DNA of 64,000 nucleotides from Kofleriaceae bacterium. GTDB lineage: Bacteria > Myxococcota_A > Polyangia > Haliangiales > Haliangiaceae. A program made the translations under genes and the position numbers. Where the stretch lies: assembly GCA_047600425.1 (NCBI GenBank), contig JASGLC010000003.1:5155832-5219831 (forward strand), given 5' to 3'. The notes below the pieces were generated by a model. It was not told where the DNA came from and ran no database searches. It worked only from the letters and a program-made list of their open reading frames with translations. Position 1 is the stretch's first letter; each line of letters begins with the position of its first letter. Of this stretch, positions 22,658 through 26,706 are shown piece after piece.

Positions 22658-23209
22658 CTAGTCCCCTGACCAGAATCGGATCGGCCCGGTGTCCATGTGG
22701 ACGAAGCCGCTATCGAGATAGAGGCCAACGCCACCGATCTTCTGCGCCTTCGCCCACGCGTGGAGCTGTTGCGTGGTGACGTTCGGCAGGAAGAAGTCGA
22801 TCGCGTTGCCGTGCGTGTGCTGCGAATCGCGTGCGACCTGATGGCCCTTCTTGCGGAGGATCAGGTTGAACTTCGGGTGGCGAAACGCGGACACGATGTG
22901 CACGGTGTCCTGTTTGAAGTGCTGGGCAGCGTCGACGACGATCGGCACCAGCTTCGGCTCCATCTTCATCGATTGGTTCGTGTAGTGATCGCGTAGAAAG
23001 TGATCCGACTCGGCCGGGAGGTGCTGCGGATCGACGGCGAGCCACTCGTGCGTGTGCTCGTTGTACAGGTTGATCAGCGGCACGGGCTTGGTGCCGGCGA
23101 CCGGAATCGGCCCGTGCGTCTTGGTCTTCGCGGCGAGCGCGCGATCCTTCTTCGACTCCGCGAAGGCGGTGCTGCACAACGCGAGCAGCACGAGCCACTT
23201 CAACGTCAT
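22658..23209 (-). CDS. Secreted DUF882 / peptidase-M15-like (YcbK-type) protein. Last gene of the Ubl operon.
   Basis: Start at ATG 23209 overlaps the upstream stop (ATGA). Signal MTLKWLVLLALCSTAFA. FRHPKFNLILRKKGHQVARDSQHTHGNAIDF...GGVGLYLDSGFVHMDTG is the YcbK/M15A His/Asp metal-site pattern. The ORF-track N-terminal 105 aa are an out-of-frame-looking extension. Confidence 0.6.
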   Translation of the reverse strand: MTLKWLVLLALCSTAFAESKKDRALAAKTKTHGPIPVAGTKPVPLINLYNEHTHEWLAVDPQHLPAESDHFLRDHYTNQSMKMEPKLVPIVVDAAQHFKQDTVHIVSAFRHPKFNLILRKKGHQVARDSQHTHGNAIDFFLPNVTTQQLHAWAKAQKIGGVGLYLDSGFVHMDTGPIRFWSGD

Positions 23210-24033
23210 CGTTTCGTGCCGAGCTGGACGAGACCTTCGTTCAACGAGCCCGAACGAAACCCGGCGAGATCGAGCGCGACGTACAAGAAGCCGAGTTGCT
23301 TGCCGAGCGCGACGACCTGATCGCGAACCTCGATCATCCGCGCGAGCTCGGACGTCTCGACCTCGAGGCGCGCGACCGTATCGTGGAACCGCACGCGCAG
23401 TTGCTTGAAGCCGAGGTGGCGCAAGCCATCCTCGAACTCGTCGACGCGGCGCAATCGATCCGGCGTGATCTGCGTGCCGTACGGAAACCGACTCGACAGG
23501 CACGCGAGCTGCGGCTTGTCCCACGTGGGCAACCCGAGCTGCTTCGACAGCGCGCGAATCTCGGTCTTCTGAAGGCCGGCATCGACCATCGGCATGAACG
23601 CGCCGCGCTCCTTCGCCGCCGCGATACCGGGACGGACATCGCCGAGATCGTCGACGTTCGTGCCGAGCACGATCGGCGCGTCACCGAGCGCGGTCGCGAT
23701 CGGTTGGGCCACCGTCATCAGCTCGGTCTTGCACAGCGCGCAGCGATGCGTGGGGTTGTCGGCGAAGCCGGGAACTTCGAGCTCGTGCGACTCGACGACG
23801 TGATGTCGCGCGCCGAGCCCGAGGCCCTGCGCGAGCGCGATCGCGTCTTTGACTTCCGAGCGCGCCATCGTGGCGGACACCGCGGTCACGGCGTGCGCGC
23901 GATCGCCGAGCGCATCGACCGCGACCTTCAACAGGAAGGCGGAGTCGACGCCGCCGGAGAACGCGACCACGACCTGGCCGTAGTCGGCCAGTTGGCTGCG
24001 CAACGCGACGAGCTTTTCGTCCACGGCCGTCAC
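23206..24033 (-). CDS. LarE-family PP-loop ATPase (TIGR00268-type ATP-dependent sulfur transferase).
   Basis: VVVAFSGGVDSAFLLKVAVDALG is the PP-loop SGGxDS motif. QLACLSSRFPYG...LRVRFHDTVARLEVE...LGFLYVALDLAGFRSGSLNEGL aligns closely with L. plantarum LarE (VASCSVSSRFPYG...VRVRFHNDIARIE...LGFRYVTLDLGGFRSGRMN). An extra CALC pair suggests the Fe-S type. Start placed at GTG 24033, overlapping the JAMM stop (GTGA). Confidence 0.7.
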   Translation of the reverse strand: MTAVDEKLVALRSQLADYGQVVVAFSGGVDSAFLLKVAVDALGDRAHAVTAVSATMARSEVKDAIALAQGLGLGARHHVVESHELEVPGFADNPTHRCALCKTELMTVAQPIATALGDAPIVLGTNVDDLGDVRPGIAAAKERGAFMPMVDAGLQKTEIRALSKQLGLPTWDKPQLACLSSRFPYGTQITPDRLRRVDEFEDGLRHLGFKQLRVRFHDTVARLEVETSELARMIEVRDQVVALGKQLGFLYVALDLAGFRSGSLNEGLVQLGTKR

Positions 24034-24380
24034 CTTAGCACCCAGCGTTGCAATTCCGAGAAGTCCTGGGCGAACAACGCGGCTTCGACGGGGCCATCCG
24101 CCAGGATTCCGACGACGAGGTGCTGGACCGGGTAGGCGGTCGCCTGCTCGCGATCGGTCGGGGAGAGGTAGGCGCGGCCGTTCGTGTGCGAGTGATAGAA
24201 GATGCGGGCGGGCTCGTCGGTGTCGAAGGAGCGGGCGAAGTCGAACAGCTCGCGGCCGTCGAGGGCGAAGCGATCGGGGCGCGGCTCGGCGTTGGTGCAC
24301 GCCACGACGCGCCTGTCAGTTACGTATCCGCAGCATTCGTTTGGGAATTCCCGCGACGCGTGAGCGAGCACATCGGCCAT
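24030..24380 (-). CDS. JAMM/MPN+ metallopeptidase (Mov34 family).
   Basis: REFPNECCGYV near the N-terminus and HSHTNGRAYLSPTD, the JAMM motif (E...HxHx7Sx2D). ~117 aa. Start chosen at ATG 24380 (MADVLAHASREFPNECCG). Confidence 0.75.
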   Translation of the reverse strand: MADVLAHASREFPNECCGYVTDRRVVACTNAEPRPDRFALDGRELFDFARSFDTDEPARIFYHSHTNGRAYLSPTDREQATAYPVQHLVVGILADGPVEAALFAQDFSELQRWVLR

Positions 24381-24456
24381 GAAGTCGATCACGCGCCGCG
24401 ATCCGATCGTGCACGTGGACGTGCACGTGCCACGTGCCACGTGCACGTCATTACCT

Positions 24457-25149: not shown

Positions 25150-25799
25150 CAGGCGACCTTTCGATGTGCGGAGCAATCCGCACGAGGAGCGAAGCGTACG
25201 ATGCGCGGCTGCGCGCTGGTGCGTAGATCGTCGAACACGTACAGCGTGCCGAGCGTTCCGTGCTGAGGATCCTTCGCAACGGCCAGCGCGAGCGCCGCGG
25301 CGGCACCACCGATCGCGCCGACGATCGGCCCGAGCACACCGCCGGTCGCACATGTCATTCCGGCGACCGGCTCCTCGAAGAAGCAGCGATAACACGCGGT
25401 GCCCGGCGCTCCGACCGTGATGTTGCCGCCGAACTGCAGCGCCGCCGCGATCACGTACGGCTTAGCGTGGGCGACCGCCCAATCGGCGACCGCGAACTTC
25501 GTCACCGGATCGTCGCTACCGTCGACGATGAGATCGCAATCGCCCGAAATATCGTCGGCATCTTCGGCGACCCACGCGAGCTTGTAGCCCTTCGCGGTCC
25601 CGCCGCGCTCGGTCACGCGCGCCGCGAGGAGTGGTGCCTTCGCACCGCCGACATCGGCGCTCGTGAATTGGATCTGGCGATGCAGATTCGAGACCTCGAC
25701 GACATCCGGATCCACGATCGTCAGCTCGACGCCGGCTGCACCCAACGCGAATGCGAGTGGGCCGCCCAGACCGCCGGCGCCGACGATCGTCGCCTTCAC
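25149..25799 (-). CDS. ThiF/MoeB-type E1-like adenylyltransferase (short form, 216 aa).
   Basis: IVGAGGLGGPLAFALGAAGVELTIVDPDVVEVSNLHRQ is the canonical E1 Rossmann/adenylation motif. It has a single CxxC (CYRC). GTG start overlaps the stop of the upstream Zn-ribbon gene (GTGA). Confidence 0.8.
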   Translation of the reverse strand: MKATIVGAGGLGGPLAFALGAAGVELTIVDPDVVEVSNLHRQIQFTSADVGGAKAPLLAARVTERGGTAKGYKLAWVAEDADDISGDCDLIVDGSDDPVTKFAVADWAVAHAKPYVIAAALQFGGNITVGAPGTACYRCFFEEPVAGMTCATGGVLGPIVGAIGGAAAALALAVAKDPQHGTLGTLYVFDDLRTSAQPRIVRFAPRADCSAHRKVA

Positions 25800-26143
25800 G
25801 CCGCGTCGGCCTTCTTGCCGCAGAGATTACAGACGCCTTGCTCGTTGATGATCCCGACGCACGCGCCGTCGGGGCAGACTTCTCGGCCGACCCAGTCGCT
25901 GTCCGTCCCGGGCATGAGGTCTTCGTTCTCGTCCTCGTGCGCGTGCTCGCCCTTGTCGGCGTGCGCGGTGTCCGAGTCTTCAGAGTCCGAGTCCTCCGCC
26001 GACGTATCCATCCCGCGCTCGCGCTCGTTGTTCCACGTCGGCGACATCTGCCCGCAGACCTTGCATTGGCCATCGGGCCCGATCACGCCGACGCACGAAC
26101 CATCCGGGCAAACTTCGCGGGTATCCCATTCGTCGACGGTCAT
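25796..26143 (-). CDS. Small double zinc-ribbon protein with acidic linker.
   Basis: MTVDEWDTREVCPDGSCVGVIGPDGQCKVCG ... acidic linker (DTSAEDSDSEDSD...HEDENED) ... REVCPDGACVGIINEQGVCNLCG. This gives two CPDGxC-x9-Cx2CG modules. ATG 26143 overlaps the FHA stop (ATGA). The ORF-track N-terminal 56 aa were discarded. Confidence 0.55.
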   Translation of the reverse strand: MTVDEWDTREVCPDGSCVGVIGPDGQCKVCGQMSPTWNNERERGMDTSAEDSDSEDSDTAHADKGEHAHEDENEDLMPGTDSDWVGREVCPDGACVGIINEQGVCNLCGKKADAA

Positions 26144-26706
26144 GACTTGCCTCCAAGCGCCGCGAACAAATCGTCCGCGAGATAGAACGTGACATCGACA
26201 TCGCCCAAGCGCAGCACCGCGCGCGAGTCGATGTTCTGTTCCTTGCGCGCGTCGAGCACGGCGCCCTTCAACCAGCTGCCGTTCTTCGAGCCGGCATCGG
26301 CGACGACCCATCGCGCGCCGGACTTCTTCAGATACGCGTGCAGCCGCGAGATCGACGTGTCGTTGATGACGACGTCGTTGTTCGGCGTTCGCCCGATCGT
26401 GATCCGATCTGGAAACGACGCGCCTGGCTTCTTCGCGAGCGGGTACACCTCGAGCTCGATCTCGTCGGGCAGATCGCGCCCGAACGGGAGTGTCTCGTCA
26501 CCGGGCGCGACGTCGAGATCGTCGTCCAACGTCAGCGTGCGGACGCCGCTGCCCGCCGCGTCGACAGCACTATCCTTGCGATAACGCACGAGTGCCGCCG
26601 GCGCCGACGATGCGAGGAACTCCTCGCGGCCGAGCTGGACCAGGTGGCGATAGTGCCCCGAGGCATCCACGGGCGGACTCTTCGCATACGGCGGCGCCCC
26701 CGGCAA
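26140..26706 (-). CDS. FHA-domain protein. First gene of the Ubl operon.
   Basis: ITIGRTPNNDVVINDTSISRLHAYL...GSKNGSWL is the classic FHA core (GR...D..L....SR.Ha.........D.gS.NGt). 188 aa. Divergent from efp with a 48-nt intergenic region. Confidence 0.7.
   Translation of the reverse strand: MPGAPPYAKSPPVDASGHYRHLVQLGREEFLASSAPAALVRYRKDSAVDAAGSGVRTLTLDDDLDVAPGDETLPFGRDLPDEIELEVYPLAKKPGASFPDRITIGRTPNNDVVINDTSISRLHAYLKKSGARWVVADAGSKNGSWLKGAVLDARKEQNIDSRAVLRLGDVDVTFYLADDLFAALGGKS

Follow-up and report, generated by a model that had tools for sequence, protein, structure and literature searches.

An operon of a Kofleriaceae bacterium joins a ubiquitin-like sulfur carrier and a putative split E1 to a LarE-family enzyme

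RESULTS AND DISCUSSION

In a 64-kb window of the genome of a soil myxobacterium of the Kofleriaceae (64,000 nucleotides of contig JASGLC010000003.1, assembly GCA_047600425.1, positions 5,155,832 to 5,219,831), eight genes on the minus strand (window positions 22658-26706) form an operon in which the parts of a bacterial sulfur-carrier system stand next to the gene of a LarE-family enzyme. They encode, from first to last, an FHA-domain protein, a zinc-ribbon-like protein (ZnR), a catalytic ThiF/MoeB-type E1, a ubiquitin-like protein (Ubl), a fragmentary E1 (E1frag), a JAMM metalloprotease, LarE and a secreted M15-type peptidase. The reading that we favour, held at a little under even confidence, is that the operon is a protein-thiocarboxylate sulfur-delivery line derived from a CysO/CysM/Mec-type pathway, with the adjacent LarE as its most likely client. 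Gene content, motifs, conservation and ancestry of the operon were read from sequence; from these we infer the pairing of the E1 with the pseudo-E1, the thiocarboxylation of Ubl, the transfer of sulfur to LarE and the substrate of LarE.

Organization and conservation of the operon

The list of open reading frames (ORFs) and the sequence of the window agree on all eight genes, and the chain of coupled genes described in a first-pass annotation could be read directly from the sequence, with ATGA at the FHA/ZnR junction, GTGA at ZnR/E1, TGATG at E1/Ubl, TGAGTG at Ubl/E1frag, GTGA at JAMM/LarE and ATGA at LarE/M15. The gap of approximately 76 nt that had been placed between E1frag and JAMM holds if JAMM starts at ATG 24380, but not if an in-frame GTG is used, as the candidates at 24392, 24440 and 24446 bring it down to 10 nt; in the relative L003 (L numbers denote related loci) the called E1frag and JAMM genes overlap by 4 nt, leaving no spacer. 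The spacer of the window holds a tandem repeat of 6.5 CGTGCA units with overlapping CACGTG palindromes (24408..24448). The repeat is unique in the window, and CACGTGSCACGTG occurs twice within it, compared with 0.17 occurrences expected in the whole window. A sigma-70 promoter scan gave no match in the operon region, which is uninformative for this organism. Pfam and NCBIfam profile scans bore out every domain call made earlier, including the core of a Ubl ending in Gly-Gly, a ThiF-type E1 and a JAMM protease.

A pattern scan with one genome per species gave 55 loci, nearly all of them from Kofleriaceae or Haliangiales; the counts of insertions and gene order given below refer to the 48 loci, each from a different species, in which the JAMM-LarE interval is covered. 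Where the contig was long enough, tblastn revealed a common order of EpmA-like and EF-P genes (divergent), FHA, ZnR, E1, Ubl, E1frag, JAMM, LarE and M15, usually with Glu_synthase and RNase T after M15. This order recurs in approximately 50 Kofleriaceae/Haliangiales species, with the identity of E1frag falling to 35%, in keeping with the earlier view of the operon as a single co-expressed, conserved module, and since all eight genes are conserved in these species, none of them is a chance ORF. A clade of three loci (L009, L016 and L030) has no Ubl gene between E1 and E1frag. L009 also carries a gene for a 515-aa secreted protein between E1frag and JAMM (10400-11947).

A putative two-subunit E1

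The catalytic E1 (25149..25799, minus strand, 216 aa) matched the Pfam ThiF profile (E 4e-42) at profile positions 22-237 only. It has neither a rhodanese domain nor the N-terminal RYxRQ arginine-finger helix, its alignment with Escherichia coli ThiF covers residues 32-225, and the ORF cannot be extended upstream. The G-loop, NLxRQ, Lys, DxSD, CYRC and crossover-loop Cys motifs are conserved (at least 95%) in 53 orthologues.

E1frag (24457..24879, minus strand, 140 aa) had no Pfam match, and it matched the N-terminus of NCBIfam MoeB models (E 5e-8). It retains N-terminal helices with an RYARH arginine finger, a degenerate Rossmann start and a long C-terminal helix, with REPDP in place of the G-loop. 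The first-pass annotation had taken it for a pseudo-E1, and its conservation agrees with this: a Kofleriaceae MAG encodes an identical hypothetical protein, 552 homologues were found, and an alignment of 17 of them has 39 invariant columns. The E1frag profile aligned to residues 1-73 of ThiF/Uba4, including RYxR(Q/H); in the comparison with ThiF, residues 1-69 were aligned and Arg11, the second arginine of RYxR, was invariant. This residue corresponds to Arg11 of ThiF and Arg14 of MoeB, the arginine finger that is supplied by the neighbouring subunit (PMC13139853). The best folds for an AlphaFold2 model of E1frag (pLDDT 78) were Uba4, ThiF and UBA5, and the inactive subunits APPBP1 and SAE1 were also found. 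The E1 is split in the same way in L058, L061 and L065, where the finger helix goes with E1frag and not with E1; in L065, E1 begins MSERLHAAVIGAGGLG and the pseudo-E1 begins ...REDQVRRYARH.

An active subunit without an arginine finger is thus accompanied by a degenerate paralogue that retains it, as in heteromeric E1s, suggesting that E1 and E1frag make up a two-subunit enzyme. Known pairs of this kind, in which the degenerate paralogue gives the arginine finger, are SAE1-UBA2, APPBP1-UBA3 and yeast Tcd1-Tcd2 (PMC13139853), whereas the pseudo-E1 described here has only 127-204 aa, lacks the middle of the Rossmann domain, is bacterial and would pair with the E1 of a sulfur carrier. If the pairing is true, the split E1 is a bacterial counterpart of the eukaryotic heterodimeric E1s, and its occurrence in a cultured species (the Haliangium ochraceum-type locus) makes it directly testable. 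Two further loci found by the E1frag pattern (L056 and L057) carry ordinary full-length E1 genes and lie outside the system.

The Ubl carrier and the JAMM protease

The Ubl gene (24880..25149, minus strand) encodes an 89-aa CysO/SAMP1-like sulfur carrier of the ThiS fold (ThiS E 4e-11) with a free C-terminal ...AIAGG, and the protein is 44% identical with the Ubl of a CysM-containing cluster (L061). Although approximately 15 of 50 orthologues likewise end in free ...AIAGG, approximately 35 carry 1-15 residues beyond Gly-Gly. Frequent endings of the tails are HA, DA or RA, a consequence of the 8-nt overlap of the Ubl stop with the start of E1frag. As most orthologues are tailed in this way, JAMM would be needed to expose Gly-Gly in most species. 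That Ubl might be the small subunit of molybdopterin synthase, an objection foreseen in the first-pass annotation, could be dismissed: its score against the moaD equivalog (16.9 bits) is far under the cut-off of 66, and no MoaE was found in scans of 30 large ORFs of the 64-kb window or in any other neighbourhood examined.

The JAMM/MPN+ gene (24030..24446, minus strand, counted from the farthest GTG; Prok-JAB E 5e-11) keeps the motif E...HSHxxxxxxxSxxD in 54 orthologues (at least 95%). In L001 (8402-9280) and L002 (8402-9313), a low-complexity insertion of approximately 170 aa, with AAVVERAMGD and GAMGG repeats, lies between the catalytic Glu region and the remainder of the domain. A 292-aa protein of L001 that had been considered as a separate unknown is this JAMM protein with its insertion.

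Sulfur transfer versus protein tagging

The 48 loci fall into two groups: 25 have an insert of four small genes precisely at the JAMM-LarE junction, and in the remaining 23, including the window, JAMM directly adjoins LarE. The insert encodes a DsrE-family protein (24.9 bits, cut-off 22.7), two further small proteins and TusA (E 2e-17). The first of the two further proteins is weakly DsrE-like in L061, and the third small protein of the insert has no family match. E. coli has a TusA-TusBCD-TusE-MnmA sulfur relay; in these 25 relatives, though not in the window, the genes of TusA and DsrE/TusD-like proteins likewise immediately precede that of a PP-loop thiolation enzyme. No TusE/DsrC-type gene was recognised.

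Together with the lack of any E2-like or E3-like domain among the operon proteins or in the related loci, the inserted TusA and DsrE-like genes support the earlier preference for a sulfur relay, and we regard a sulfur-carrier function of Ubl, rather than tagging, as well supported. The contrary proposal is that Ubl is a protein modifier of the SAMP/TtuB type, activated by the E1 and removed by JAMM, with the FHA protein tying tagging to Ser/Thr-kinase signalling. In Haloferax and Thermus, one Ubl both carries sulfur and tags proteins, and the best NCBIfam matches here are SAMP1 for Ubl (54.9 bits, cut-off 60) and the desampylase model for JAMM. The FHA gene (26140..26706, minus strand, start TTG 26706 or GTG 26670; Pfam FHA E 7e-14 at residues 102-168) heads the operon and was found in 47 related loci with conserved GR...SxxH...NG motifs, and two Ser/Thr kinase genes lie within 25 kb (18468-21158 and 44861-46678), as noted in the first-pass annotation. 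However, both the SAMP1 and the desampylase scores are under their cut-offs, E2/E3-like genes are missing, and the genes added or swapped in relatives all belong to sulfur metabolism (TusA, DsrE-like, CysK, CysM and ATP sulfurylase). A tagging role is very improbable on this evidence.

Origin of the carrier block

The relatives that keep CysK/CysM genes (L053, L055, L058, L061 and L065) point to the origin of the block. The Haliangium ochraceum-type locus L065 has the order Rrf2, CysK, E1, Ubl, E1frag, CysM, JAB, DsrE, two small genes and TusA, and L053 has FHA, ZnR, Rrf2, CysK, E1, Ubl, E1frag, CysM, JAMM and DsrE, followed by further genes. In L055 the order is ZnR, Rrf2, CysK, E1, a threonine synthase-like (ThrC-like) enzyme, Ubl, NIL, E1frag and CysM. 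L061, from Polyangia, has ThrC-like, ThiS, NIL, E1frag-like, CysM, JAB, three small genes (two weakly DsrE-like), TusA, PilZ, ATP sulfurylase, LarE, a Cys-rich protein and M15. A tblastn search for CysK, CysM and ThrC-like genes found none in the 64-kb window or in the approximately 48 reduced loci, which were covered up to 10 kb on each side of the match, and Pfam scans of 30 large ORFs of the window likewise gave no CysK or CysM. Judged by gene content and order, the E1-Ubl-E1frag-JAMM block, with DsrE-like and TusA genes where present, is the carrier half of a CysO/CysM/Mec-type cysteine pathway, and the operon of the window is its reduced form, from which CysK and CysM have gone and in which the block stands between ZnR and LarE-M15. 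The view of the first-pass annotation that the partner set was an invention around LarE is therefore abandoned, as the Ubl block is a reduced CysO/CysM/Mec-type cluster and L065 has it without LarE.

The nearest LarE genes outside Kofleriaceae stand in other contexts. In L059 and L060, a Cys-rich protein of 102-104 aa, a ZnR homologue, PilZ and LarE follow one another, and L064 has the order Cys-rich protein, ZnR, LarE. Such ZnR-LarE pairs without Ubl suggest that ZnR...LarE is the older arrangement and that the Ubl block of Kofleriaceae lies within it. L062 and L063 have an IscS-like desulfurase, ThiI, LarE and M15, so that LarE is repeatedly found behind a sulfur-mobilising module, of two unrelated kinds.

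Two additions to the cysteine-type clusters were observed. A threonine-synthase-like enzyme of the pyridoxal phosphate (PLP)-dependent type, with an N-terminal Cys-rich motif, is encoded in L055 (3986-5233), L058 (7300-8619) and L061 (1-1145), and an 82-aa NIL-domain protein stands beside Ubl in L055 and L061 (1429-1677 in the latter). These additions hint at a thiocarboxylate-dependent homocysteine branch.

The LarE enzyme and its substrate

The PP-loop ATP pyrophosphatase gene (23206..24033, minus strand) belongs to the LarE family (TIGR00268, 299.6 bits, cut-off 150), and the protein matched Lactiplantibacillus plantarum LarE (PDB 5UDQ) over its full length (E 1e-45, residues 7-270). At least 95% of 48 orthologues retain SGGVDS, CALC, the Cys of ACLSSRF, LSSRFPYG and RVRFH. 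The score and these motifs uphold the earlier assignment as LarE with the CxxC-C signature of the [4Fe-4S] type, and cluster binding is predicted on this basis. The CxxC-C signature is shifted by one residue from Cys176, as in Thermotoga maritima LarE. The TtuA model gave only E 0.052 with the window LarE, which is thus not an acceptor of the TtuA/Ncs6 family.

SSRFPYG and RVRFH are identical with those of the L. plantarum enzyme, in which Ser180, Arg212 and Arg214 are the named phosphate ligands of pyridinium-3,5-biscarboxylate mononucleotide (P2CMN) (PMC9283937), and LarA homologues occur in 80-100% of the Myxococcota species sampled (PMC11770544). A new LarE substrate, as had been envisaged before, is therefore not needed, and ordinary P2CMN is the economical assumption that we infer from these residues. 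The alternative is that the carboxylate thiolated by this LarE homologue is not P2CMN and that a new thio-metabolite or cofactor results, with Ubl as the dedicated donor. It would accommodate the lack of larB/larC in the operon and among the window ORFs scanned, the recent report of a dinucleotide variant of the pincer (PMC13524815) and the breadth of the LarE family, which comprises 9,940 cluster representatives at 50% identity (the nearest are 50-59% identical with the window LarE) and has diverse fusion partners. The identity of Ser180, Arg212, Arg214, SSRFPYG and RVRFH with authentic LarE, a score twice the equivalog cut-off and the frequency of LarA homologues in Myxococcota argue against it, and we consider such a substrate unlikely, though less remote than a tagging role of Ubl. 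Among the LarE fusions (P0121, P0123, P0159, P0188 and P0239), the partners are NUDIX (closest by score), an AIRC/LarB-type domain, an N-terminal TGS beta-grasp domain, and rhodanese plus a TtuA-like PP-loop domain; RNase H-like and histidine phosphatase domains are further partners.

A possible route of sulfur to LarE

Under the reading of the operon as a delivery line to LarE, the 216-aa E1, with its catalytic motifs, and the 140-aa pseudo-E1, with the arginine-finger helix, would together adenylate the C-terminal Gly of Ubl, and a persulfide would turn the acyl-adenylate into the thiocarboxylate (Ubl-COSH). For the 25 loci with TusA and DsrE-like genes, this relay within the operon is the probable source of the persulfide; the clade of the window would have to obtain it from a donor encoded elsewhere. 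JAMM would trim the short tail after Gly-Gly, with hydrolysis of Ubl adducts as a possible second task. The open iron of the [4Fe-4S] cluster of LarE (CxxC...C) would then receive a non-core sulfide, either from Ubl-COSH or straight from the TusA persulfide, and LarE would adenylate P2CMN and convert it into the dithiocarboxylate precursor of the nickel-pincer cofactor. In favour of LarE as the acceptor are its translational coupling to JAMM, the insertion of TusA and DsrE-like genes directly before it, the location of the Ubl block within a ZnR...LarE pair, the IscS-ThiI module that precedes LarE in an independent lineage (L062 and L063) and the need of the [4Fe-4S] LarE type for an external sulfur donor. 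Moreover, since CysK, CysM and ThrC-like genes are missing from the reduced loci and the window, LarE is the sole sulfur-using enzyme left in the operon.

Several observations weigh against this route. The flanks are as syntenic as the operon itself: EF-P, EpmA, Glu_synthase and RNase T keep their places equally well, and EF-P with the EpmA/PoxA-like class II tRNA-synthetase paralogue (26755..28454, plus strand) is found in nearly all loci, including L059 and L060, which have no Ubl block. Conserved order inside one family is thus weak evidence by itself. TusA and DsrE-like genes are missing from the window and its clade, and so is a rhodanese domain. The Ubl gene is missing from four loci, of which three keep LarE and one (L014) has neither. 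The L065 cluster ends at TusA and has no LarE; conversely, a LarE of the same CxxC-C type is encoded in L059, L060 and L064, where no Ubl system lies close by. When 30 large ORFs of the 64-kb window were scanned against Pfam, no LarA, LarB or LarC was detected. As to the split E1, the arginine finger was reported to be non-essential in ThiF and MoeB (PMC13139853).

Some of this evidence bears on the main alternative, namely that the Ubl-thiocarboxylate is still used to make cysteine or homocysteine, the PLP enzyme (CysM-like or ThrC-like) being encoded at another place in the genome. LarE-M15 would then be its neighbour by descent, and a cysteine desulfurase would provide the sulfur for LarE. 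The same block is interleaved with CysK and CysM, and in some cases with ThrC-like and NIL genes, in L053, L055, L058, L061 and L065, which also tells against LarE as the client; L065 has the block but no LarE, L059, L060 and L064 have LarE but no Ubl system, and in L062 and L063 LarE is accompanied by IscS-ThiI. In addition, the retention of JAMM where Gly-Gly is already free, as in the window, would fit hydrolysis of a Ubl-cysteine adduct in the manner of Mec+ (PMC3227635). On the other hand, no CysK, CysM or ThrC-like gene accompanies the block in the reduced loci or the window, and the block remains unbroken and translationally coupled to LarE in species whose E1frag proteins have diverged to as little as 35% identity. 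A search with a Kofleriaceae CysM query gave at least 120 matches and, among the matches listed, none was tied to the genome of the window; as most of them lacked an organism name, this says little. We hold a role in cysteine or homocysteine synthesis to be possible but rather unlikely. For delivery to LarE, the full proposal is that Ubl-thiocarboxylate is the physiological donor of the [4Fe-4S] LarE in Kofleriaceae, made by a two-subunit E1 after a CysO/CysM cluster lost its cysteine synthases, and that ZnR and M15 are further LarE partners; in this complete form it is tentative and less likely than not.

Most LarE enzymes are of the iron-sulfur type, the natural sulfur donor of which has not been established, with only E. 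coli IscS shown to act, in vitro. The operon therefore offers a concrete and testable candidate for a LarE sulfur donor, together with an evolutionary route to such a donor.

ZnR and M15 as neighbours of LarE

The ZnR gene (25796..26143, minus strand), recognised by sequence motif, encodes two CPDGxC...CxxCG zinc-ribbon-like knuckles with an acidic linker and has no family in Pfam or NCBIfam. It is kept in the Kofleriaceae loci, with 2-4 repeats. ZnR had been listed as a partner of Ubl; it goes with LarE instead, as L059, L060 and L064, which lack a Ubl system, have a ZnR homologue (tblastn E 2e-13 to 3e-18) directly upstream of LarE.

The last gene of the operon (22658..23209, minus strand) encodes a secreted DUF882/Peptidase_M15_2 metallopeptidase (PF05951, E 7e-32) of MepK-like type. 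Its zinc site HxxxxxxD...H is conserved, and it is not a MepK equivalog (109 bits against the MepK model, cut-off 185). M15 comes next after LarE in 45 of the 48 Kofleriaceae loci and also in L061, L062 and L063, which have different upstream genes. The LarE-M15 pairs are at 6154-8469 in L061, 10001-11500 in L062, 10001-11637 in L063 and 22658-24033 in the window. By their distribution over these loci, the ZnR and M15 genes track LarE and not Ubl. That LarE-M15 and ZnR-LarE pairs recur suggests that the nickel-pincer pathway of Myxococcota has undescribed partners or uses, and the LarE-M15 pair hints at a link of LarE with a cell-wall-type peptidase.

A Cys-rich protein of 102-126 aa as called (YYCWKCRNELEF...CPHC...CKNC...) is encoded upstream of LarE together with ZnR, and neither of the two has a family. 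The sites are at 6838-8885 in L059, 6877-8909 in L060 and 9168-10867 in L064, with PilZ between in two of them. The Cys-rich secreted proteins beside M15 in the window and in L061 were also compared, and no relation between them was detectable.

Comparison with known systems

The CysO-CysM-Mec+-MoeZR system of Mycobacterium tuberculosis (PMC3227635) shares with the operon a ThiS-fold carrier ending in Gly-Gly, a ThiF/MoeB-type E1 and a JAMM hydrolase, and the processing and adduct hydrolysis described for CysO/Mec+ parallel the role proposed for JAMM (PMC3227635). In contrast with that system, the operon has no CysM/CysK, its E1 is split in two and has no rhodanese domain, half of the relatives have a TusA/DsrE-like relay, and LarE, ZnR, FHA and M15 are attached.

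In the TtuA-TtuB-TtuC system of tRNA 2-thiolation in Thermus thermophilus, a ThiF-type E1 makes the Ubl-thiocarboxylate and the sulfur is proposed to be handed over to the open iron of a three-Cys [4Fe-4S] PP-loop enzyme (summarised in PMC9283937). The PP-loop enzyme of the window is of the LarE family, however, and its substrate would be a small molecule and not tRNA; the transfer is proposed here by analogy. The [4Fe-4S] LarE of T. maritima has the same CxxC-C type, and the sacrificial LarE of L. plantarum has the same PP-loop and substrate residues. For the T. maritima enzyme, IscS supplies sulfur in vitro, and TtuA/TtuB was cited as a mechanistic model (PMC9283937). Known LarE genes have been studied with larB and larC, and with IscS as the in vitro donor, and in the literature searched none was connected with a Ubl carrier, a ZnR protein or an M15 peptidase, the neighbours of LarE in the window.

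Each component of the operon belongs to a known family; the novelty lies in their combination, in the reduced architecture, in the predicted split E1, and in ZnR and M15 as putative LarE partners. We found no paper linking LarE with a ThiS/MoaD-type carrier, a ThiF-type E1 or JAB, which, as literature coverage was incomplete, is weak evidence of novelty.

Other features of the window

Whereas Glu_synthase directly follows M15 in relatives, approximately 4 kb is inserted between the two in the window (18468-22629). The insert encodes a Ser/Thr kinase with a long C-terminal region (18468-21158, minus strand), a sigma-70-family factor (21206-21985, minus strand) and a Cys-rich secreted protein (22048-22629, plus strand). 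Beyond it lie Glu_synthase (16944-18452) and RNase T (11472-12011). On the other side of the operon, the second Ser/Thr kinase gene (44861-46678, minus strand) lies directly upstream of a gene for a sigma-54 activator with a GAF domain and a weak FHA-like N-terminal domain (42193-44877, minus strand), making a second FHA-kinase pairing in the window. At 53253-54892, two overlapping minus-strand ORFs correspond to the halves of DUF4419 (profile positions 1-178 and 186-303), which suggests a frameshifted gene or an assembly error.

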